In this document: positions 1,779 to 34,200 of the stretch, piece after piece
Layout: every line of letters starts with the position of its first letter
Numbering within the stretch: the stretch's first letter is position 1
Origin: Candidatus Saganbacteria bacterium
GTDB lineage: Bacteria; Margulisbacteria; WOR-1; JAKLHX01
DNA: 64,000 bases
Assembly: GCA_026387835.1 (NCBI GenBank)
Contig: JAPLKZ010000013.1
Span: forward strand, 89,254-153,253
Direction of reading: 5' to 3'
Position numbers and translations under genes: made by a program
Notes under the pieces: generated by a model
Databases searched by the model: none
What the model was told of the DNA's origin: nothing
The model's input: the letters and a program-made list of their open reading frames with translations, nothing else

Positions 1779-3479
1779 ATGGACAAAGGACAATTAGAAG
1801 TATTGCGCCATTCCACCTCCCACATAATGGCGATGGCGGTAAAGGAACTTTTTCCGGAAGCAAAGCTGGCTATAGGCCCCGCGATAGAAGAAGGTTTTTA
1901 TTATGATTTTGAGATCCCCAGCGTACTTACACCGGAAGACCTCAAGAAGATCGAAGACAAGATGAAAGAAATAATCAAAAGGGACATTAAATTCGAGCGG
2001 ATCGAGATGGACAAGGGAAAAGCGATAAAAGAGATGGAAAAACTCGGGGAAAAATATAAAGTAGAGCTTTTAAAAGAAATTGAAGGTGACAAGGTTACTT
2101 TTTATAGGAATGCGGGCTTTACAGATCTTTGCAGAGGGCCGCATATCGAATCTACGGGAAAAGCAAAAGCTTTCAAGCTGCTCAAACTTGCAGGAGCATA
2201 CTGGAGAGGAAGCGAAAAGAATAAAATGCTCCAGAGGATTTACGGGACATCTTTTGACACGGAAAAAGAACTTGAAGATCATATTAAAAGGATGGAAGAA
2301 GCCGAGAAAAGAGACCACAGGCGTCTCGGAAAAGAGCTTGATCTTTTTAATATCTACCATGAAGAAGCGGGAGCCGGACTTGTGTTTTATCATCCGAAAG
2401 GCGCAGTCTTAAGGGGGGTGATAGAGGATTACCTGAAAGCAGAGCACAGAAAACGCGGCTACCAGACGGTCATCATCCCTCATATTGCGAAAATGGATCT
2501 CTGGCAGACATCAGGCCACGCGGATTATTACAAAGACAACATGTATTTCATGGATATCGACGAACAAAAGTATGTGCTGAAACCGATGAACTGCCCGGGA
2601 CATATTTTGATATACAAAAGGAAACTGAACAGCTACCGTGACCTGCCGGTAAGGTTTTTCGAACTTGGGACAGTATACAGGCATGAAAGGTCCGGCGTGC
2701 TCCACGGACTTCTAAGGGTCCGCGGTTTCACGCAGGATGACGCGCATATCTTCTGCAGGCCGGACCAGCTGCAGGATGAGATCAAAAAAGTGATCGACTT
2801 TGCTTTTGACATGCTTAGGAAGTTCGGTTTCGAGGAGTTCGAAGTCTATCTTTCCACAAGGCCGGAAGGATCGGTCGGTTCCGACGACAACTGGAACCAC
2901 GCGACTGCCGCCCTTGAAGAAGCGTTGAAAAGCAAAAAAATAAAGTATGAGGTCGATCCCGGTGCTGGAGTTTTTTACGGACCGAAGATCGATGTTAAGC
3001 TGAAAGACGCGATAGGCCGCGCGTGGCAGGGGCCGACCATCCAGGTGGACTTCAACCTTCCCGAAAGGTTCGACCTTTCATATATAGGCGAGGACGGGGC
3101 AAAACACCGGCCGGTCATGATCCATAGAGTAGTGTTAGGTAGCATGGAACGCTTTATCGGGGCTTTGACCGAACATTATGCCGGAGCATTCCCGTTCTGG
3201 CTAGCTCCGGTCCAAGTCATCATTCTCCCGATATCGGACAGGCATATCAATTATGCTGAAGAGGTTATCAGGAAATTAGGCGATCAGGATATCAGGGCTG
3301 AACTTGACGCTAGAAGAGAGAAGATAGGACTAAAAATCAGAGAAGCCCAGCTACAGAAGGTCCCGTACATGCTCGTGATAGGCGACAAGGAAGTCGAAGC
3401 AAAGACTGTTGCTGTCCGCTCCAGGGAAAAAGGCGACCTGGGCGCAAAACCCCTGGAAGAGTTCATCCGCTCGATATAA
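1779..3479 (+). CDS. thrS: threonyl-tRNA synthetase lacking the N-terminal TGS domain
   Basis: ATG 1779 directly after dxr stop; RHSTSHIMA editing-domain motif, class II catalytic core and anticodon-binding domain; the upstream ORF extension from 1695 overlaps dxr and was not used. Confidence 0.9.
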   Translation: MDKGQLEVLRHSTSHIMAMAVKELFPEAKLAIGPAIEEGFYYDFEIPSVLTPEDLKKIEDKMKEIIKRDIKFERIEMDKGKAIKEMEKLGEKYKVELLKEIEGDKVTFYRNAGFTDLCRGPHIESTGKAKAFKLLKLAGAYWRGSEKNKMLQRIYGTSFDTEKELEDHIKRMEEAEKRDHRRLGKELDLFNIYHEEAGAGLVFYHPKGAVLRGVIEDYLKAEHRKRGYQTVIIPHIAKMDLWQTSGHADYYKDNMYFMDIDEQKYVLKPMNCPGHILIYKRKLNSYRDLPVRFFELGTVYRHERSGVLHGLLRVRGFTQDDAHIFCRPDQLQDEIKKVIDFAFDMLRKFGFEEFEVYLSTRPEGSVGSDDNWNHATAALEEALKSKKIKYEVDPGAGVFYGPKIDVKLKDAIGRAWQGPTIQVDFNLPERFDLSYIGEDGAKHRPVMIHRVVLGSMERFIGALTEHYAGAFPFWLAPVQVIILPISDRHINYAEEVIRKLGDQDIRAELDARREKIGLKIREAQLQKVPYMLVIGDKEVEAKTVAVRSREKGDLGAKPLEEFIRSI

Positions 3480-3577: not shown

Positions 3578-4216
3578 ATGACACAACAAATGAGGATCGA
3601 ACGCAGTTTAATACTTCGCCCGATCGCGATGACGCTGACAAGGATGATAATGGGACAGCCCAAAACGCTCGGTAGGAAATGGTTCGAAGGTGTCGGTGAG
3701 GGTCATGTGGCGACAGGCACCACAGGCGGCCGCACTACTTTTGATCTTCCGTTGCTGTTCAAGCCCGATACACCCTTAAAAGATGTAAAACCGGCAGTCT
3801 CAGGACTGTGCTTTGACCAGGCATCAAAACTTCTGAACAGAGGAAGAGCTGTTTTTACCGCGAGAGGAAATTACACGCAGGCAGCAATGGATACATACAG
3901 GGCGGAGTTCCTTGCACTTCCGCATGAGGGATCTGACGAAAGGCTTTTTGCGCTGTTCATGATGATGGCCGCATTCCCGTTCACACTAGATAATATGATT
4001 GCAGAAACAGGTTCTAATGTCATGATCGGAACGATAAGACCACTGGAAGGCCCGAGGGTAGTTCTTGATTTTGAAAGGCACAAAGGGAAAGTCGATGTGC
4101 AATCCGTTGCAAACATGTTCCTTGCGCACTTGAATATCATCTCAGGCATCGAGCCTAAACTCGTAGAAAGAACGGATGGCGATCCTTTGCTTAGACTTGT
4201 TTTTCCGAAAGAATAG
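3578..4216 (+). CDS. hypothetical protein (212 aa), no recognised domain
   Basis: ORF with RBS aaggag 8 nt upstream of ATG and a promoter-like element at 3515-3558. Confidence 0.5.
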   Translation: MTQQMRIERSLILRPIAMTLTRMIMGQPKTLGRKWFEGVGEGHVATGTTGGRTTFDLPLLFKPDTPLKDVKPAVSGLCFDQASKLLNRGRAVFTARGNYTQAAMDTYRAEFLALPHEGSDERLFALFMMMAAFPFTLDNMIAETGSNVMIGTIRPLEGPRVVLDFERHKGKVDVQSVANMFLAHLNIISGIEPKLVERTDGDPLLRLVFPKE

Positions 4217-11010: not shown

Positions 11011-11030
11011 GATGAAATTATTGTTAAAAT

Positions 11031-11117
11031 CGGAAGGAGCAGGATTTGAACCTGCGGTGCGCTTGCACGCACAGTAGTTTTCAAGACTACCGCCATAAAC
11101 CACTCGGCCATCCTTCC
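11031..11117 (-). tRNA. tRNA-Ser (anticodon TGA), type II with long variable arm
   Basis: GGAAGGATGGCCGAGTGG...CTTGAAA anticodon loop...TTCAAATCC T-loop; 7-bp acceptor stem GGAAGGA/TCCTTCC; no encoded CCA. Confidence 0.85.
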
Positions 11118-11262
11118 ATGTCCCGCTCGCTTGCCCCGAGCCTGTCGAGGGGGCCACCTCTCCGTAAAATATTGTATCACGGCTGTAGGTGCGTAGGATA
11201 TCAGCACGACCTCCGGCAAATGACCAAATAATCCCGTTCCCGCGACATTTTTTGGAAAAATC

Positions 11263-18871: not shown

Positions 18872-18973
18872 GATCTTGGCCTTTTGTATCCTTGAATCCA
18901 ATTATATACTAATAATGGGAGGATAAACTCAAAACTCCGGTTTTGGCTATGTTATAATTATTTTTGTATACCT

Positions 18974-19046
18974 GAGCCACTAGCTCATCTGGTAGAGCAC
19001 TTGCCTTTTAAGCAAGTGGTGCCGCGTTCGAGTCGCGGGTGGCTCA
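18974..19046 (+). tRNA. tRNA-Lys (anticodon TTT)
   Basis: Acceptor GAGCCAC/GTGGCTC, anticodon loop CTTTTAA, T-loop TTCGAGT. Confidence 0.85.
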
Positions 19047-19052
19047 AATTAT

Positions 19053-19128
19053 GGGCCCGTGGTGTAGCCTGGTCTAACACGCATGCCTGTCACGCATGAG
19101 ATCGAGGGTTCAAATCCCTTCGGGCCCG
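19053..19128 (+). tRNA. tRNA-Asp (anticodon GTC)
   Basis: Acceptor GGGCCCG/CGGGCCC, anticodon loop CTGTCAC, T-loop TTCAAAT. Confidence 0.85.
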
Positions 19129-19134
19129 TTTGTT

Positions 19135-19207
19135 GGCGGGTTAGCTCAGTTGGTAGAGCAGTAGCCTGAAAAGCTATGTGTCCTCAGTTCAATTCTGAGA
19201 CCCGCCA
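19135..19207 (+). tRNA. tRNA-Phe (anticodon GAA)
   Basis: Acceptor GGCGGGT/ACCCGCC, anticodon loop CTGAAAA, T-loop TTCAATT. Confidence 0.85.
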
Positions 19208-19259
19208 AATTATCTTTTTTGCTGTGGGCTTGCGCCGAGCGAGTGAAGCGAGTCGAGGC

Positions 19260-19332
19260 GCCGACGTAGCTCAGCTGGTAGAGCAGCTGTTTCGTAAACA
19301 GCAGGTCGTCAGTTCAATCCTGACCGTCGGCT
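19260..19332 (+). tRNA. tRNA-Thr (anticodon CGT)
   Basis: Acceptor GCCGACG/CGTCGGC, anticodon loop TTCGTAA, T-loop TTCAATC. Confidence 0.85.
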
Positions 19333-19376
19333 TTAATAAGTTTTATGTTAGAATATGCTATCTGAAAGGAAGAAAT

Positions 19377-19751
19377 ATGTCAAAAAAAATACTTGTGATC
19401 GATGATGAAAATGATGTGGTGGAGATACTCAAGACGATCCTTGAGCATGAAAAATATGAAGTGATAAGCAGTTACGGCGGTGAAGACGGGCTTAAAAAAG
19501 CGATAGCATCTAAGCCCGACCTCATAATCACGGACATAATGATGCCGGGGATGGACGGTTTCGAGTTCGTGCAAAAGCTTAAAGAGAACATGGAGACGTT
19601 CAATATCCCCGTGATCATGCTGACCGCAAAGGACCAGGGAGTTGACAGGGAAAAAGGCCTGGCGCTCGGCGTGATAGCTTACATAGTAAAACTGTTCGAT
19701 CTTGAAGAGCTTATATCCACGGTAAAAGACGCAGTCGAAAAGAAAAAATGA
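19377..19751 (+). CDS. single-domain response regulator (CheY-like receiver)
   Basis: 124 aa from ATG 19377 with RBS gaaaggaag; receiver motifs (ILVIDDE, phospho-acceptor Asp in IITDIMMPGMDG, Lys in AYIVKLF); the longer ORF from 19176 would read through tRNA genes. Confidence 0.8.
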   Translation: MSKKILVIDDENDVVEILKTILEHEKYEVISSYGGEDGLKKAIASKPDLIITDIMMPGMDGFEFVQKLKENMETFNIPVIMLTAKDQGVDREKGLALGVIAYIVKLFDLEELISTVKDAVEKKK

Positions 19752-19763
19752 ATGAGCCGAAGC

Positions 19764-19836
19764 GCTGGCGTAGCTCAGCTGGTAGAGCAGCGGTTTTGTA
19801 AACCGCAGGTCGTCAGTTCAATCCTGACCGCCAGCT
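19764..19836 (+). tRNA. tRNA-Thr (anticodon TGT)
   Basis: Acceptor GCTGGCG/CGCCAGC, anticodon loop TTTGTAA, T-loop TTCAATC. Confidence 0.85.
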
Positions 19837-26255: not shown

Positions 26256-27010
26256 GTATTTCAAGCGGTTATATTTCTTCGATATTCCAGAGCATACAGG
26301 GAGAAGGCGTCTATATCGGTGAAAGGCAGGTCTTTGTAAGGTTCTTAGGATGCAATCTATCATGCGCGTATTGCGATGAACAGGAAGCCCGGATCATAAA
26401 TGACAAGGACGGCCGGCCGCGGAAATGCCAGATCAAAGCGGATAAAAAAACGGAACAAGCCGATAATCCCGTAACAGCGGACGCAGCGCTGCAGTTCATT
26501 GAAAATTTTCTTTCAAAAAAAAATCTCTTCCATTCGGTATGTCTTACCGGAGGAGAACCCCTGCTGCAGGTTGATTTTCTAAAAGATCTTCTGCCTAAAA
26601 TAAAGCACAAAAAATATCTTGAGACGAACGGCGTCCTTTTTGAGAACCTCAGAGAGATGATCGGTCTTACGGACATTATAGCGATGGATTTCAAGCTGCC
26701 TTCCGCAACCAGGGCGGGGTCATATTTCGAGGACCACAGGCGGTTCATCAGAGTAGCCAGGGCAAAGGAACTGTTCATCAAGGCGGTTTTTTCAAAAGAG
26801 ACCACGGCCAAGGAGATCGACGATATCTCGCGCGTGATCTCAGAAGAAGGCAGTGATATTCCTCTCGTGCTGCAGCCTGTAACACCGAGCAGGGATTACA
26901 GGTCCCCGGCCTCAGCTGAACAGTGCCTGGCGTTCCAGGCCATAGCAAAAAGGAATTTGGACAAAGTACTCGTCATCCCGCAGACGCACAAGATCCTTGG
27001 ACTTGATTAG
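26252..27010 (+). CDS. queE: 7-carboxy-7-deazaguanine synthase-like radical SAM protein
   Basis: 252 aa; IFQSIQGEGVYIGERQVFVRFLGCNLSCAYCDE cluster motif, LTGGEPL. Confidence 0.7.
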   Translation: MSISSGYISSIFQSIQGEGVYIGERQVFVRFLGCNLSCAYCDEQEARIINDKDGRPRKCQIKADKKTEQADNPVTADAALQFIENFLSKKNLFHSVCLTGGEPLLQVDFLKDLLPKIKHKKYLETNGVLFENLREMIGLTDIIAMDFKLPSATRAGSYFEDHRRFIRVARAKELFIKAVFSKETTAKEIDDISRVISEEGSDIPLVLQPVTPSRDYRSPASAEQCLAFQAIAKRNLDKVLVIPQTHKILGLD

Positions 27011-28422
27011 CGGGCAGTCCTTCTGCTCAGAGACGCGGTTATCGCCGAAAGGTGCTGAATGTCACGGTTCCTGTTGGGATCAAAGCTGATCTTCTGGAGA
27101 GATCTCAGCAGTTCAAGCTTGTATATCGCGGTATCAAGAGCCAGTTTCTCAAGCCCCGTCTCGATCCATTTTATCCCTTCTTTAGGTATATCGTAGCCCA
27201 GCGTGTTGGATTTTTTAGTTAGTCTTGATATTTCTTTTGAGGCGACATCGAATTCGCGGGACGAGGTCGTAAGGATCCTGTTAAGATGGGACTGTTTGAG
27301 CATCGATATTATCTTAAGCCAGGCTATGCGGCGCGACTGCGTCCTGATGTTGTCGATATTTTCTTTTTCCATTCCCCTGTCCTTCAGGGTGTTTTCGAGC
27401 CTCCGGACCGTTACTCTTTCAGGAACCGCTTTAAAAATGTTGTCTTCGAGGAAAAGTTTTGTATGAGAAGTGCGGAGGTCGCCGACAACTACTGAGATGT
27501 CTTTCATCTGCGGCAGGTCGAAAAGATGAAAATACATATCGGCATTTTCCAGCCGGTTGATATGCACATTATCGCCCAGGAACATTTTCATCATCGAATC
27601 GATGTCAAGATTGAGATGTTCCGCGAGCTGGGCGAGGTCCGAGATATCAAGATTGTTCAGGATGACGGCCCTTTCGCTGAGCGAGATCGACTCTTTTTCG
27701 AGCGCGTTCAGGATATCGATGATAGATCTCGGATTTTTGGCATTGATTATCCAGTCTGACATGTGCAGGGTGCCGCTTGCGGAGCTGAAAAATTTATCTT
27801 TGATCAGTTTAAGGAATCTTTCTTTGATCATATCGAGGGTCTTTTGGTCGAGGTATTCCAGGTCGATCCCGATCAATCCGCCTTTCATAAGCGCTTCTTT
27901 CACGGCTGCCAGGCGGATCGTAACATTGTCCAGCTCGTCCTTAGGCCGCTGCATTACCATCTTTGCGGTAAGCGCCACATAATCTTTAAGAAGGGTCTCC
28001 TCGATGATCTTCGCTTTTTCCGTAAAGCTGATGTATTCCGCCGCGGCGGAAAGGCCTCCCGTTTCTCCGGGTGCTTTCGTTTCGCTCTCCTCCTCTTTTT
28101 TCTCCCCTTCCTTTTTCGGCCTTTTTTTCTCGGCCTTCTTGACCACGGAATCAAGCCTGCGCTCCGAGATCTTTGCTAATTCCTGTTGGTAAAACATTTC
28201 TTCTTCATGGGGTTTTCTCTGGCGTTTTGAGTTCACCTCGGAGACGCCGTCCGAAGAGATCATCTCTATCAGCAGGTCTTTGAATTTGGCCTTCGGATCG
28301 TTGTCCGGAGGCACCGCGTTCGGTTCGGTCCTCGCTTTCCTGTCAAATCCCGTGGAAAGTATACCGCCTGTCCCCGCGGCCGCGGCCTGCTGGTTGGAAG
28401 AAGGAAGCCCCTCTATTGGCAT
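27007..28422 (-). CDS. hypothetical protein (471 aa) with Lys/Glu-rich low-complexity N-terminal region
   Basis: Long ORF with no recognised domain; convergent with queE, divergent from the DGR target gene. Confidence 0.5.
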   Translation of the reverse strand: MPIEGLPSSNQQAAAAGTGGILSTGFDRKARTEPNAVPPDNDPKAKFKDLLIEMISSDGVSEVNSKRQRKPHEEEMFYQQELAKISERRLDSVVKKAEKKRPKKEGEKKEEESETKAPGETGGLSAAAEYISFTEKAKIIEETLLKDYVALTAKMVMQRPKDELDNVTIRLAAVKEALMKGGLIGIDLEYLDQKTLDMIKERFLKLIKDKFFSSASGTLHMSDWIINAKNPRSIIDILNALEKESISLSERAVILNNLDISDLAQLAEHLNLDIDSMMKMFLGDNVHINRLENADMYFHLFDLPQMKDISVVVGDLRTSHTKLFLEDNIFKAVPERVTVRRLENTLKDRGMEKENIDNIRTQSRRIAWLKIISMLKQSHLNRILTTSSREFDVASKEISRLTKKSNTLGYDIPKEGIKWIETGLEKLALDTAIYKLELLRSLQKISFDPNRNRDIQHLSAITASLSRRTAR

Positions 28423-28506
28423 AAAAGATCCCCGTTTCGAAAATTATACACCATCAGGTGGAAATAGGGTATAGGGCGAAGAAATGACTAATTAATGGAT
28501 TATATA

Positions 28507-28520
28507 AGCAGCAAGCAGTC
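28507..28520 (+). repeat. AGCAGCAAGCAGTC motif (copy 1), followed by an imperfect palindrome
   Basis: Related copies at 30394-30428 and 31141-31171. Confidence 0.5.
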
Positions 28521-28625
28521 AGCCCGCCTGCAACGCTTTGCGTAGCAATGCGGGCAGGCAGAACGCGGTACGTGCCGAGAGCATGTCAAGCATCCAAACA
28601 TTATACCCCCCCCTCCCCACATAAT

Positions 28626-28670
28626 AAAATTCAGTGAAATTCCCAATATTTCCATTCGATACATATATAG
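28626..28670 (+). promoter_or_regulatory. conserved upstream element (copy 3 of 3), AAAATTCAGTGAAATT-N15-CGATAC-N2-ATATAG
   Basis: Same architecture as 3515-3558; ends 26 nt upstream of ATG 28697. Confidence 0.4.
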
Positions 28671-28696
28671 ATGAAAATACCGAAAGGAGAAAAGTG

Positions 28697-29359
28697 ATGA
28701 ATAATATTAGAGGGATCATGCGTGGATGGACAAACGAAGGAAGACCGGCAACATGGGCGAATGTAAGAAATGCAATAGCGAATCAGACCGCGTGTTCTGT
28801 GGTTGTATCATCAGGATTGGGGCCGATCTTATCGCTTACAAGGCGGAGGGTGGAAGAAGGCCCCGTACAAAAACTTGCGCGGACTGCAACCCCTGCTTTT
28901 GATGTGGCAAAGTTCATGGAAGCCCACAATTTTATCGATGTTCCCGAAAGACCTTTTAGAATAATGGCAGACGAGCTTTCGGTAGGGCTATTCAACCGAT
29001 TTGTTAAAAGCACACAATACGAAATTATAGGCCATAATGCGGATTCTTTAAAAGGAGTTCTTGCCGGAACAGATCGACGCAGTATAGCAACATATTTAAG
29101 CTGGAATGACGGCACGGCTTATGCTAAATGGCTGAGCGCAGTAACTGGCAAAAGCATTATGCTTCCAACAGAGAAGAAATGGTTAGACGCCGTTGACAAA
29201 GTCCGAGATCAACTATCTGGGAACAATTGGGAATGGACGAAAACCCCATATTCCAGCAACGCCTTTGTTCTCCATCACCTGAACAATTCGCTCCGTTTCA
29301 ACTGCATCCCTGGGAATCGTTTTAACTTCAATGCGGTCCGTCTTGTTGAGGACAAATAA
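28697..29359 (+). CDS. DGR target-type protein with FGE/C-type-lectin-like fold and Asn-rich C-terminal VR-like segment
   Basis: Motifs ...LSWNDGTAYAKWLS...LPTEKKWLDAV...GNNWEWTKTP...NSLRFNCIPGNRFNFNAVRLV; RBS aaaggagaaaag; GTG at 28634 is an alternative upstream start. Confidence 0.65.
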   Translation: MNNIRGIMRGWTNEGRPATWANVRNAIANQTACSVVVSSGLGPILSLTRRRVEEGPVQKLARTATPAFDVAKFMEAHNFIDVPERPFRIMADELSVGLFNRFVKSTQYEIIGHNADSLKGVLAGTDRRSIATYLSWNDGTAYAKWLSAVTGKSIMLPTEKKWLDAVDKVRDQLSGNNWEWTKTPYSSNAFVLHHLNNSLRFNCIPGNRFNFNAVRLVEDK

Positions 29360-29429
29360 ATTATCCTTTGCTCTTTTATTCTTTTACTCTTTGAGTGGGA
29401 TGGGGTGGCCAGGAGTTTGAGGGAAATAA

Positions 29430-29768
29430 ATGGAAGGTCCAAAAGTTATAACCTTGGCCTATGATTTCATAAAATGGGCCATTCCTCATATTGTGAAGTT
29501 TCCAAGAAATCAAAGATACACGCTTGGGGAACGGGTTGAAAACAAACTATTCTTCCTTCTGGAACTTCTCATTGAAGCTCAGTATTCTAAAGACAAAGCT
29601 AATGTGCTTAAGAAAGCGAACATGGAAATTGAGCAGACACGATATTTATTCCGTTTATGCCATGACTTGCGGCTGATCAATTTAAAAACCTACGAATTGT
29701 CTTCAAGGCAGTTGATGGGAATTGGGGCGCAGGTCGGGGGATGGATCAAGCAGCAAAATACCAAATGA
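29430..29768 (+). CDS. avd: DGR accessory variability determinant (four-helix-bundle, 23S rRNA IVS protein family)
   Basis: 112 aa; family-typical N-terminus (LAYDFIKWAIPHIVKFPRNQRYTLGERVENKLF); stop overlaps the RT start (ATGA). Confidence 0.75.
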   Translation: MEGPKVITLAYDFIKWAIPHIVKFPRNQRYTLGERVENKLFFLLELLIEAQYSKDKANVLKKANMEIEQTRYLFRLCHDLRLINLKTYELSSRQLMGIGAQVGGWIKQQNTK

Positions 29769-30397
29769 AGCGCCACGGTTATTTATTCGATAAGATCACT
29801 TCTTTTGAAAATCTCTTAAAAGCCTCACGAAAAGCTCAGAGGGGTAAACGCTTCAAGAATTCCACGGCCGAATTTAACTTAAAAATAGAGTCCGAACTGC
29901 TGGAACTGCAAAGAGAACTGCAAGAGGCAACTTATCGAATAGGCAGCTATAAACAATTCTACATTTATGACCCAAAGAAACGGTTAATCAACGCCTTGTC
30001 TTACAGAGACAGGGTTGCTCAGCATGCTTTATGCAATGTTATCGAGCCGATATTCGATAACGGATTAATTTATGATAGTTACGCCTGCAGGAAAGATAAA
30101 GGCAGCCATAGGGCTGTCAGCCGGTTTGCGATGTATTGCCGCAAGAATAAATATGCCTTGAAGTGCGACATTAAAAGCTATTTTGCCTCAATAGATCACG
30201 GCCTCTTGTTTGACATGATCATGAAAAAAATTAAAGACCCGGATGTAATACAGCTGATTAACTTGATCCTTGATTCAACCCCTTCTCCCGGAATTCCAAT
30301 CGGGAATTTGGCCAGCCAAATATTCGCCAATCTTTATCTTAACGGACTTGACCATTATTTAAAGCAACCTTCGAGATTGAAATCGACCCCCGCTTAG
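29765..30397 (+). pseudogene. DGR-type reverse transcriptase, 3-prime truncated (N-terminal about 210 aa only)
   Basis: N-terminal RT motifs (MKRHGYLFDKI, YIYDPKKRLINALSYRDRVAQHALCNVIEPIF, DSYACRKDKGSHRAV, QIFANLYLNGLDHY); ORF stops before the YxDD active-site region. Confidence 0.75.
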
Positions 30398-30428
30398 CAG
30401 TCCGCAGCAAGCAGTCTGCAAGCTGCGG
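30394..30428 (+). repeat. TTAGCAG...GCAGCAAGCAGTC...CTGCGG motif (copy 2) at the RT breakpoint
   Basis: Overlaps the stop of the truncated RT ORF; related to copies 1 and 3. Confidence 0.5.
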
Positions 30429-30438
30429 TCCAACTCCC

Positions 30439-31038
30439 TCAAACAAACCCAAACTTCCCCTTCGGTTTGCTTTCGTCTTTCAATATCTTGTTGATCGCGC
30501 TGAAGAGACTGATGATGTCCTGGTCGTGCCGCCCGATCTTGTGCTCTATCTCTGACAGCTTCTGGATCAACTCTTTGTTGAATGTAAGCAACTGCCTAAT
30601 TTTTACGAATGCTCTCATTATGGCTATATTGACCTGGATGGCCCGTTTGCTTGTAAGTACAGAGGAAAGCATGGCTATTCCTTGTCCTGTAAATGCGTAT
30701 GGAAGGTATTTGATATGTCGTCCGCGCATGGAATTTGGGTCATGCTTGTGGTCGAATTTCTTTAAGGTTGCAAAATGCAACCTTAAACAATCCAATTCTT
30801 CCCATGTGAGTTGGAACATAAAATCTTTGGGAAATCTTGAAATATTTCTATTTACTTGCTGTTTTAATCTTTTGATGCTTTCCTCATATAATGGAGCCAG
30901 GTCGGCATCCAACATGACTTTCTGGCCTCTTAAAAGGAAGATACTGGACTCTATTGATTCGGCGGAAATAATCATACTGTTGGATTTTTCAACATCTTGG
31001 TCTACGGATGCCTTTTTGTTACGCACACTTTTTGGCAT
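30439..31038 (-). CDS. ORF6N-domain protein (KilA-N-like DNA-binding family common in mobile elements)
   Basis: 199 aa; ...RGQKVMLDADLAPLYEESIKRLKQQVNRNISRFPKDFMFQLT...KYLPYAFTGQGIAMLSSVL. Confidence 0.75.
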   Translation of the reverse strand: MPKSVRNKKASVDQDVEKSNSMIISAESIESSIFLLRGQKVMLDADLAPLYEESIKRLKQQVNRNISRFPKDFMFQLTWEELDCLRLHFATLKKFDHKHDPNSMRGRHIKYLPYAFTGQGIAMLSSVLTSKRAIQVNIAIMRAFVKIRQLLTFNKELIQKLSEIEHKIGRHDQDIISLFSAINKILKDESKPKGKFGFV

Positions 31039-31140
31039 AAATATCCTCTCTTTCCCGGATCAAGGCTTAAAGCCAGCAGCTTACAAATGGTCAATGAGCA
31101 ATTTATCCGCCACGACAAAGGCTCTATCGCTAGGGTTCTA

Positions 31141-31171
31141 TTAGCAGCAAGCAGTCCGCAGACTGCGGAAC
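31141..31171 (+). repeat. TTAGCAGCAAGCAGTCCGCAGACTGCGG motif (copy 3)
   Basis: Flanks the ORF6N gene on the side opposite copy 2; contains palindrome CCGCAGACTGCGG. Confidence 0.5.
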
Positions 31172-31217
31172 TTGTTTCATCATAATTATTTTTTTCACCG
31201 TGATATAATTAGTTGAA

Positions 31218-34200
31218 ATGCCGAAAAGAAACGACATAAAAAAAATAATGCTCATCGGTTCCGGGCCGATCGTCATCGGCCAGGCGTGCGAGTTCGATTA
31301 TTCGGGAACGCAGGCGTGCAAGGCCTTAAAAGAAGAAGGATACAAGATCATCCTTGTGAACAGCAACCCGGCGACAATAATGACGGACCCGGAGTTCGCT
31401 GACAGGACCTATATCGAACCGATAACACCGGAGATAGTTGAAAAAATAATAGCGATAGAAAGACCGGATGCTCTGCTTCCGACGATCGGGGGACAGACGG
31501 CCTTGAACACGACCGTGGCTTTAGGTGATTCAGGCGTCTTTAAAAAGTACGGAGTCGAACTTATAGGCGCCAGCCTCGACTCTATAAAAAAAGCGGAGGA
31601 CAGGCATCTTTTCAAGGAGGCCATGAAAAACATCGGCCTTAACATGCCGAAAAGCTATTCTGTCTACAGTTCCGAAGAAGCGGTCAAGATTATCGGTGAC
31701 ATAGGGTTCCCGGCGATAATCAGGCCGGCTTTCACCCTGGGAGGCACGGGCGGGGGGATCGCGTACAATATCGAAGAATTGAAAGAAAAAGTAGCTCAGG
31801 GTGTATTTCTGAGCAGGATCGGACAGGTCCTGATCGAGGAATCGGTCATAGGATGGAAGGAATACGAGCTTGAGGTGATGCGCGACCTGAAGGATAATGT
31901 AGTCATAATCTGCTCGATAGAGAACTTCGATCCTATGGGCATCCACACGGGAGACAGCATCACGGTCGCGCCCGCCCAGACGCTGACCGACAAGGAGTAC
32001 CAAAGATTAAGGAATTATTCCATAGCCGTGATGAGGGAGATCGGAGTTGATACCGGCGGTTCTAACATCCAGTTCGCCGTAAATCCGGAGAACGGCAGGG
32101 TAGTAATAATAGAGATGAACCCGCGCGTCTCCAGAAGTTCGGCGCTCGCTTCAAAAGCGACAGGATTCCCGATAGCAAAGATCGCCGCCAAGCTTGCCGT
32201 GGGGTACACTTTGGACGAGATCCCTAACGACATCACAAAAAAGACCCCAGCCTCGTTCGAACCGACGATAGATTATGTAGTCACCAAGATCCCGCGGTTC
32301 GCTTTCGAGAAATTTCCCGGAGCCGACCAGACGCTCAATATACAGATGAAATCAGTCGGAGAGGCAATGGCGATCGGAAGGACTTTTAAGGAATCGCTCC
32401 AGAAAGCTCTCAGATCGATCGAGACAGGCGCCTGCGGGCTTGATGATATCAAAGATGAAAAAGAAAAAAGCGTAAGCGGACACAGCGAAGATGAACAGTC
32501 GCTGCAATTATCGATCTATGACAGGCCTAAGACAGAGACCGGAGATATACCGCTTGAAAAAATAAAAGAAAAGATCAGTATCCCCAATCCGGAAAGGCTG
32601 TTCTATATCAAAAAAGCATTTCAATCCGGCATTTCACTGGAAGACGTCTGCAAATTATCAAAGATCGACAAATGGTTCCTGGACAATATTTTGCAGATCG
32701 TCTCGATGGAGGAAAAGATCAAGAACGGGAAGTCCTCTGTAAAGATGACCGGAGACAGGTACGATATTGATGCAAAATTATTACTGGAAGCGAAAAGATG
32801 CGGATTTTCTGACAAACAGATAGCAAGGATGTGGGATATGACCGAGCATGAGGTGGCAAGTGCCCGAAAGAATGCCGGCATCATTCCGGCGTATAAGACG
32901 GTCGATACTTGCGCGGCGGAGTTCGAGGCGTATACACCATATTACTATTCTACTTACGAAAAAGAGGACGAGGTCGCGCCGTGCAAAAAACCGAAGATCA
33001 TGATCCTCGGGGGAGGGCCCAACCGGATCGGACAGGGCATCGAGTTCGATTATTGCTGCTGCCATGCCTCGTTCGCCCTGAAAGAGGACGGCTACGAGAC
33101 TATAATGGTCAACTGCAATCCCGAAACTGTCTCGACAGATTACGATACTTCCGACAGGCTGTATTTTGAGCCTATGACTTTTGAGGACATAATGCACATA
33201 GCGGAGCGCGAAAAACCCATCGGCGCGATAGTCCAGTTCGGCGGCCAGACGCCCCTTAAACTGGCGGTCCCGCTTGAGAAAGCCGGGCTGAAGCTTCTGG
33301 GGACATCGTCCGAATCAATAGATATAGCAGAGGACAGGAAAAGGTTTGAACAGATGCTTGAAAAACTGGAAATACCCCGTCCCAACAACGGGATGGCCAT
33401 GTCTTACGAAGAAGCAAATGTTGTCGCAAAAAGAATCGGTTATCCAGTGCTGGTGAGGCCGTCATATGTCCTTGGAGGAAGAGCGATGCAGATAGTATAT
33501 GATGACGGGATGCTGCGCGATTATATGAAGAACGCGGTGAACGTGTCTCCCGACCATCCTGTCCTGATCGACCAGTTCCTGGAGGATGCGATCGAGATCG
33601 ACGTGGATTGTGTTTCGGACGGCAGGGATGTCATCATCGCAGGGATAATGGAGCACATTGAAGAAGCGGGGATACACAGCGGTGACAGCGCATGCGTGCT
33701 TCCTCCGTTCTCCATCGGAGAAGAAATAATAAAAAAAATAAAAGAATACACCTATGCCATGGCTAAAAAGCTGAAGGTCTCGGGGCTCATGAACGTCCAG
33801 TACGCTATCAAAAGCGATAAAGTATATGTGCTTGAAGTGAACCCGCGCGCGTCGCGCACTGTCCCGTTCGTAAGCAAAGCGACCGGTGTCTCATGGGCGA
33901 AGATCGCGGCAAGGGTCATGGCAGGCAAGACTTTAAAAGAACTGAAAGTGAAGGAGGCAGTGCCTGATCATTTGTCTGTCAAAGAAGTGGTCCTCCCGTT
34001 CATAAAGTTTTCCAAACAGGATACCGTTCTTGGCCCGGAGATGAAATCCACCGGCGAGGTCATGGGGATCTCGAACAACCTCGGTGAAGCGTTCGCAAAA
34101 GCCCAGATCGGTGCCGGAGAAAATATCCCGGTCAAAGGCACCGTTTTTATTTCTGTCAGGGACAGGGACAAACGTCCGATCGTCCCGATCGCAAAGATGC

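Follow-up and report, generated by a model that had tools for sequence, protein, structure and literature searches.

A probable remnant of a Bordetella-phage-type diversity-generating retroelement beside a palindrome-bearing ORF6N gene in Candidatus Saganbacteria

Diversity-generating retroelements (DGRs) have their prototype in the bRT-Avd-TR-Mtd system of Bordetella phage BPP-1, in which the template repeat (TR) lies between avd and brt. Chromosomal DGRs with small targets of the C-type-lectin fold form another set of systems, to which the elements with TvpA-like targets and those of the candidate phyla radiation (CPR) belong. Surveys of DGRs (PMC5758913; PMC8144416) start from full-length reverse transcriptases (RTs) and do not treat truncated elements, and a remnant like the one presented here would therefore not be catalogued. 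We analyzed 64,000 nt of Candidatus Saganbacteria (contig JAPLKZ010000013.1 of assembly GCA_026387835.1, positions 89,254-153,253), hereafter called the window, whose coordinates are used throughout. One of its loci is very probably the inactivated remnant of a Bordetella-phage-type DGR, carried within a horizontally acquired island of ~2.7 kb (Table 1). An RT of the DGR clade, an Avd protein and a target of the DGR type were found there, and a catalytic RT and a TR paired with a variable region (VR) were not, which makes the locus a DGR remnant and not a DGR. Decay of this sort is to be expected, and the novelty is limited to the particular case and its clean anatomy.

The likeness to the BPP-1 element is seen in the RT, the N-terminal half of which aligns residue for residue with 8ub7_A, a 328-aa reverse transcriptase that we take to be the Bordetella phage bRT, as well as in the four-helix-bundle partner Avd, in the IGxxxSQ motif and in the position of the VR at the extreme C-terminus of the target. 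The differences are the order target - avd - RT - TR in the present lineage, where the TR follows the RT, a target that takes the form of a small FGE-type protein in place of a phage tail fibre, and the truncation of the RT and loss of the TR. Among chromosomal DGRs, those with small FGE/C-type-lectin-fold targets (PMC5758913; PMC8144416) resemble the locus in their chromosomal location with no phage genes nearby, in an FGE-sulfatase-type target ending in ...AVRLVED and in an Avd coupled to the RT; unlike them, the copy described here has neither a catalytic RT nor a TR/VR pair. The closest full elements lie in metagenome-assembled genomes of Saganbacteria/Margulisiibacteriota.

The truncated RT is the centre of the argument. 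Among solved structures it is closest to 8ub7_A (E 2.8e-47, residues 2-200 against 3-202); group II intron RTs follow at 2.5e-11, and these and retron RTs taken together score 1e-11 or weaker. The Pfam profile RVT_1 is matched at 2.2e-9 over positions 8-143 of 205 alone, and the DGR-type motif IGNLASQ (I/LGxxxSQ, motif 4) lies at 30299-30319. A preliminary description of this DNA had the RT cut before its YxDD motif, and this proved right: homology ends at ...LDHYLK, around residue 202 of 334, and gives way to an unrelated PSRLKSTPA-stop (the last ~8 codons), whereas the intact relative reads on ...HYIRYMDD..., with YMDD as its residues 210-213, about 8 codons past the break. The fragment is thus without YMDD and thumb, and further pieces of RT, Avd or target were not detectable anywhere in the 64 kb. 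It has neither a frameshift nor an internal stop, and deviates at 5 columns conserved at ≥90%, where 55 intact homologues show a median of 3 such deviations. Only two of its changes are singletons at RT columns that do not vary otherwise, and one of these is P79S in motif 1 (29999-30001; ALPYRDR to ALSYRDR), a position held by Pro in all 55 close full-length homologues. All three open reading frames (ORFs) remain open, and the RT fragment has diverged hardly further than its intact relatives, so that the inactivation would be fairly recent.

The avd gene immediately upstream is intact, matches Pfam bAvd at 6.8e-18 and passes the cutoff of the NCBIfam equivalog NF033474 (diversity-generating retroelement protein Avd; 103.4 bits against 80). 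Its stop codon overlaps the RT start codon as ATGA (29765-29768), in agreement with the identity and the coupling that had been proposed; profile searches, which the preliminary description had called for, thus place both genes in the DGR class.

The target gene, preceded by AGGAG 8 nt upstream of its start, matches Pfam FGE-sulfatase at 1.2e-9, above the gathering score, and its family profile matches FGE, PvdO and CalU17 chains at ~1e-5. The FGE/C-type-lectin C-terminus attributed to it from the outset was borne out by alignment: the C-terminal 150 aa share 37% identity (E 3e-22) with the verified target of an intact relative and end in the same motif, AVRLVED. The protein is of full length when compared with its only two relatives (44% and 37% identity). 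The assignment to the FGE type rests on sequence, an AlphaFold2 model built from a 3-sequence alignment reaching a mean pLDDT of 36. Asparagine makes up 9 of the last 45 residues, as expected from the many Asn reported in the presumed variable region. The suggestion of a surface protein, on the other hand, found nothing in the sequence to sustain it: reading by eye disclosed no obvious signal peptide or membrane segment.

What a working element of this lineage looks like could be learned from its relatives. A protein search with the RT fragment returned 1,524 relatives, the closest full-length ones being 334 aa long and 84% identical, and several of these are named Saganbacteria or Margulisiibacteriota by their sources. 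The gene order target - avd - RT - TR holds in the intact loci L009/L010/L011, L228 and L230 (a further locus, L012, starts within the gene upstream of the RT, so that a partial ORF and the RT are visible), and the TR begins no more than 5 nt past the RT stop. Mismatches between VR and TR fall at TR adenines in 17/17 cases in L009 (VR 1286-1369, TR 2782-2865), in 14/14 in L228 and in 13/16 in L230. DNA homology between the window and L009 extends over 29333-30372 at 82.6% and ends abruptly at 30372; the C-terminal ~130 residues of the RT (~203-334) and the TR, which make up one block of ~0.5 kb in the relatives, are missing together.

No TR was recovered in the window by exact search or by an adenine-tolerant scan, both on the two strands, the best adenine-tolerant candidates showing at least 13 non-A mismatches per 60 nt, which is noise; that no template repeat is seen at the locus, as initially noted by eye, is therefore upheld by both scans. 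Outside the window, a 41-nt VR/TR pattern, with N at positions assumed variable, had no match in JGI metagenomes. A 17-mer was searched in JGI metagenomes and, as the sole pattern, in IMG/VR: this 17-nt core, proximal to the initiation of mutagenic homing (IMH) site, gave at least 120 JGI matches and one in IMG/VR, of which the 116 comparable ones are attributable to chance (at least 42 non-A mismatches per 107 nt).

In a working element, the RT together with Avd would copy the TR, located just 3' of the RT stop, into cDNA with misincorporation at template adenines, and this cDNA would replace the final ~85-125 nt of the target gene. At the present locus, the RT stops after residue ~202 and the TR is gone, and the VR would persist as an ordinary gene segment. 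With an RT devoid of YMDD and thumb and no TR in cis, the VR is therefore frozen and the target is no longer diversified by this cassette. The inactivation of the DGR that had been proposed is accordingly supported, intact relatives showing what is lost.

The former VR retains the GC-rich, IMH-like end GCGGTCCGTCTTGTTGA that is kept in relatives; no stable hairpin was predicted 3' of it, either in the window or in intact relatives (z-scores about 0). Compared with the TRs of the two closest intact elements, it differs at 12/26 shared-A positions and at 11/50 of the other positions where these TRs agree (Fisher p=0.038), the differences at the 11 non-A positions being mostly transitions, and for roughly half of the AAY codons in the relatives' TRs the VR still has Asn. 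These data are consistent with, yet weak evidence for, a VR that was formerly diversified by adenine mutagenesis, and the epithet "recently diversified" given to the target in the preliminary description stands only to that extent. The spacer between target and avd (29360-29429) is conserved with positions 1380-1441 of L009 and 3603-3665 of L228, though the targets are only 37% identical; it is first pyrimidine-rich, CCTTT..CTTTTATTCTTTTAC, then purine-rich, GAG.GG.TGGGGTGGCC, has no predicted stable hairpin and could possibly be a cis element of this DGR lineage.

The break was verified in independent assemblies, namely Logan contigs from ERR15302170-224 and SRR20698651, which probably go back to one population sampled in one study. 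Avd, ORF6N and flanking proteins identical to those of the window were found on contigs from at least 10 sequencing runs, and eight Logan contigs match the window at 100%. Four of them (L001-L004, of which the records L013/L014 are reverse versions and not extra contigs) span 30372-30440 without a difference, and L001 and L002 reach carB. In the 8 assemblies, the VR shows zero differences in every covering contig, as judged on consensus sequences; 90%-identity clusters of the target and of the RT fragment, drawn from about 15 billion proteins, contain start-codon variants alone and no VR variants. Contigs that are identical across the break therefore exclude an assembly error and indicate that the consensus VR is fixed; neither a full-length RT nor a TR, which a corrected assembly might have shown, is present at the locus in any of the 8 independent assemblies.

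The remnant and the ORF6N gene that follows it on the opposite strand together form an inserted island of ~2.7 kb. The 471-aa gene and carB, which border it, are adjacent and divergent in relatives, 99 nt apart in L103 and 178 nt in L105, whereas the spacer between the same two genes spans 2.8 kb in the window, where the outer spacer sequences of the relatives, 'aattatacac..ggaaata' and 'cgtgatataatt..gaaATG', are recognizable on either side. GC content is 0.39-0.455 (mostly 0.41-0.45) over ~28400-31400 and ~0.48-0.53 outside. The adjacency of the flanking genes in relatives and this drop in GC therefore identify an inserted island, in which four ORFs alone are found: target, avd, RT fragment and ORF6N.

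Within the 64 kb, a motif of 13-14 nt, AGCAGCAAGCAGTC, is confined to three copies in the island, at 28507, 30403 (with 1 mismatch) and 31143; at least three matches anywhere were obtained in 2/100 shuffles. Copies A and C lie ~30 nt inside the island ends and copy B between the DGR unit and the ORF6N unit, each being followed by a different GC-rich hairpin. As first noticed, the break coincides with this motif and with the ORF6N gene: the RT homology stops 24-30 nt from copy B, which itself begins 11 nt past the ORF6N stop. No copy of the motif was present in 1.08 Mb of related loci, in the intact DGR relatives, in 80 other ORF6N loci or in two distant empty sites, which makes it particular to this island; its candidacy as a family feature of DGR or ORF6N cassettes was discarded on the same count. 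An integron-type cassette array was likewise rejected, as the repeats consist of a 13-14 nt core with dissimilar hairpins and no GTTRRRY core, and the flanks are housekeeping genes; no IntI integrase is encoded among the four island ORFs, to which the search for integrases in the 64 kb was confined. A scan of the island for promoters and terminators gave counts no different from those of shuffles.

In at least 5 samples, Logan contigs of the left flank stop exactly at 28551 and contigs of the island begin exactly at 28530. Ends of this kind would arise in a k=31 graph if a 38-nt sequence were repeated exactly in two contexts; no second copy of the 38-nt hairpin sequence was found in the window or in IMG/VR.

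Table 1. Features of the island and its borders (positions in the window; strand left blank where none applies)
Feature	Position	Strand	Remarks
Left neighbour, 471-aa conserved hypothetical gene	27007-28422	-	
Low-GC inserted island (approximate limits)	28470-31187		between divergent 471-aa gene and carB
Repeat copy A, AGCAGCAAGCAGTC	28507-28520	+	27-nt similarity 28497-28523 to copy C
38-nt imperfect hairpin right after copy A	28522-28559	+	
DGR target gene, intact, FGE/C-type-lectin-like	28697-29359	+	220 aa, NCBI MCX5750005.1
Former VR	29266-29349	+	counterpart of L009 VR 1286-1369; ends in IMH-like GCGGTCCGTCTTGTTGA
avd, intact	29430-29768	+	112 aa; 86% identical to Avd of intact relative
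Truncated DGR RT ORF	29765-30397	+	210 aa; homologous part 29765-30372 = residues 1-~202 of 334
Junction filler, RT homology end to copy B	30373-30402		no significant similarity to anything found
Repeat copy B and hairpin	30403-30428	+	partial extra copy AGCAGTCCGCAG at 30396-30407
ORF6N-domain gene	30439-31038	-	199 aa
Palindrome within ORF6N coding sequence	30761-30787		TTTAAGGTTGCA ttt TGCAACCTTAAA, encodes CLRLHFATLK
Repeat copy C and hairpin	31143-31168	+	106 nt upstream of ORF6N start, ~50 nt upstream of carB
carB, right neighbour	from 31218	+	

The loss of the 3' part can be accounted for in more than one way. One tentative explanation, to which we give close to an even chance, is that this part was deleted in situ in an event connected with the entry of the repeat-flanked ORF6N gene; arrival of the DGR as an already truncated, repeat-bounded fragment is conceivable, if doubtful, and other routes take the remaining share. 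Copies B and C bracket the ORF6N gene with the geometry of repeat-flanked ORF6N genes in other genomes, which suggests an insertion with adjacent deletion or, if the insertion was clean, a DGR that was already truncated and bracketed by A and B. Taken to its end, this second option would mean that the DGR never worked here, target, avd and 5' RT fragment having arrived truncated as the A-B unit and the ORF6N gene thereafter as the B-C unit of a tandem array. We consider this rather unlikely. Three copies of AGCAGCAAGCAGTC do bound exactly two segments, a clean ORF6N insertion between B and C would leave an RT already truncated next to the motif, and the absence of the motif from intact DGR relatives, from the other ORF6N loci and from the relatives' empty sites points the same way. 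Nevertheless, the four island ORFs include no recombinase gene and no mechanism is known, the B-C repeat taken alone amounts to 26 bits, which is unexceptional against the null, and the empty sites come from distant relatives (60% and 47% amino-acid identity).

A second intact DGR elsewhere in the genome could still diversify the target in trans, the local avd and RT fragment being a redundant leftover, and multi-target and remote-target DGRs are established, secondary targets having been treated (PMC8144416); moreover, target and avd are both intact at this locus and the 64 kb examined are only part of a contig of at least 166 kb. Such a situation seems improbable in view of the absence of VR variation in the 8 assemblies and in the protein clusters, and of any TR-like match in the window or in the exact scans of JGI metagenomes and IMG/VR. 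P0015 and P0027, the named Saganbacteria DGRs nearest to this element, belong to other assemblies and are thus uninformative on trans-complementation; their TRs depart from the VR at 11/50 non-adenine positions.

That the locus is no DGR at all, and instead consists of an RT fragment from a group II intron, retron or defence system beside an unrelated enzyme of the FGE family, is very improbable. In favour of this reading, the NCBIfam model that the RT fragment matches best is one for group II intron RTs, far below cutoff (100.8 against 300 bits), and the target is named SUMF1/EgtB/PvdO family nonheme iron enzyme at NCBI. The gap between the E-values for 8ub7_A and for group II RTs argues against it, as does the Avd equivalog cutoff that was passed, and the 84%-identical relatives have TR/VR pairs with adenine-only mismatches and a VR that aligns with the 3' end of the target. 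A chimeric join of two strains or contigs, created by assembly or binning, is a negligible prospect even though several Logan contigs break off at identical points close to the island's left border, because L001-L004 cross 30372-30440 without difference, and L001 and L002 continue into carB.

Several points nonetheless weigh against an inactivated DGR remnant as we describe it. The invariance of the VR is a consensus-level observation, probably from a single study and population; only 64 kb of the genome are visible, and an intact RT with a matching TR could lie elsewhere; and the enrichment of differences at adenines is weak, and had to be measured on the TRs of other elements since the TR of this one is lost.

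As a DGR remnant, the locus offers a clean, datable example of the death of a hypermutation cassette, with the RT active site and the template lost in one event and target and avd left open. It also provides a natural 'frozen' VR, with which one can ask what a DGR target does after diversification stops. Surveys seeded on full-length RTs overlook such remnants, and public annotation hides this one behind a SUMF1/EgtB/PvdO enzyme and, for the RT fragment, a 'reverse transcriptase domain-containing protein'.

The small ORF6N gene next to the break is arguably a more curious object than the DGR remnant. Its product matches PF10543 at 4e-29 over profile positions 2-86 of 86 and shares the single-domain architecture of ~170-200 aa of the ORF6N family, a group of KilA-N-like predicted DNA-binding domains in phage and plasmid proteins. 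Relatives with 44-56% identity occur in Omnitrophota, Margulisiibacteriota, Melainabacteria, Acidobacteriota, Planctomycetota, Bacteroidota, Proteobacteria, CPR phyla and others, and the family counts 28,220 representatives at 50% identity (E ≤1e-3, 1.84 billion proteins). Members are rare among sequenced phages (5/50,697 records) and occur in chromosomes of very many phyla and in 25 plasmids, in the latter annotated as 'ORF6N domain-containing protein' alone. There is no general link with DGRs, since none of 80 ORF6N loci has a homologue of the RT, Avd or target at a distance of up to 4 kb.

Nucleotide homology between ORF6N genes of different genomes is limited to the gene itself, ~0.55 kb, which would be expected of a gene moving on its own. 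For instance, L075 (3986-4527) and L077 (3479-4018) are 89.5% identical over 542 nt with dissimilar flanks, and the homology of L060 with L064, L068, L085 and L089 is likewise confined to the gene. Direct repeats of at least 32 bits flank 9/71 ORF6N loci, as compared with 4/234 random positions in the same loci (Fisher p=4e-4); present at ~1 locus in 8, they are duplicated host sequence of 16-289 nt, 85-100% identical (L069, 3665-4651; L087, 3759-4626; L051, L036, L076, L066, L030, L025 and L044). In L069, 128 nt are duplicated, corresponding to the 5' end (first 39 codons) of a ComF-like gene as read from translated ORFs, and in L087, 63 nt, corresponding to the 3' end (last 21 codons) of the upstream gene; one intact copy of the host gene remains in each. 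On a Bacteroides ovatus plasmid (L233, NZ_CP081918.1, 1079-3522), the ORF6N gene directly follows two coding sequences annotated as 'site-specific integrase' (410 aa and 191 aa), an arrangement that looks like an interrupted or partly duplicated integrase gene.

Within the coding sequence of nearly every ORF6N gene (L023-L102, ~80 genomes from very many phyla), the best palindrome stands at the same codons. Typically TTGAGGTCACAAATTGTGACCTCAA, which encodes LRSQIVTS (LRSQ[IF]VTS-like), it measures 25-35 bp, with arms of 11-19 bp and a centre of CAAWTTG. In an ungapped, codon-derived alignment of 78 genes, 82.7% of the cells are paired, as compared with 28-48% for slid partners. In 14/15 palindrome pairs both partners vary, a single pair running through all four Watson-Crick types (27 AU, 19 GC, 13 CG and 11 UA), and the observed covariation score was reached by 0/500 shuffles. 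The arms covary at the cost of amino acids, an S/F/L/R/C codon being coupled to V/A/E/G three codons on, and G:T and A:C mismatches are about equally frequent (25 and 19). These forced amino-acid changes, together with the parity of G:T and A:C, point to a constraint at the level of DNA and not to mRNA structure. Part of what Pfam presents as a 'conserved protein motif' of ORF6N is thus probably dictated by DNA structure and not by protein function.

In a few ORF6N genes, a second copy of the gene's own palindrome is found just beyond the reading frame: L058 has one upstream of its start codon, L070 has one at its stop, and on a Legionella pneumophila plasmid (L232, NZ_CP048619.1; palindromes at 3147-3171 and 3860-3884) it lies 5 nt past the ORF6N stop. 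Several Bacteroidota ORF6N genes carry two palindromes in tandem, 36-42 nt apart. The leading reading is that the palindrome would be a cis-acting site in duplex DNA for the gene's own, presumably dimeric product, and that it may be connected with the movement of a single-gene unit. A precedent by analogy is provided by parS, since these palindromic protein-binding sites lie within the coding sequence of parB/spo0J: in both cases, a perfect or near-perfect palindrome sits in the gene of a DNA-binding protein. The two share no homology, the resemblance being one of analogy alone, and binding of an ORF6N protein to its palindrome is putative. A bolder proposal, in which the ORF6N gene is an undescribed single-gene mobile or selfish unit, the palindrome its own cis site, and its arrival the event that removed the 3' half of the RT and the TR, strikes us as unlikely, albeit worth stating.

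No Rfam 15 family covers the palindrome, and the searchable literature yielded no description of an ORF6N palindrome, of flanking duplications or of mobility, a query combining KilA-N and palindrome returning nothing relevant. The junction between RT and ORF6N gene (GCAACCTT...) was examined for resemblance to a palindrome arm and dismissed, its score of 20 falling within those of shuffles (mean 18, 95th percentile 22). In a family of ~28,000 representatives, such a palindrome would point to an unrecognised cis-acting element, and it may matter more than the DGR remnant next to which it was found.

With regard to structured RNAs, Rfam 15 gave no match at E ≤1 over 27500-32000, and gathering-level matches in the whole window are tRNAs alone, five tRNA genes (Lys, Asp, Phe, Thr and Thr) being clustered at 18973-19836 and a tRNA-Ser gene lying at 11030-11118.

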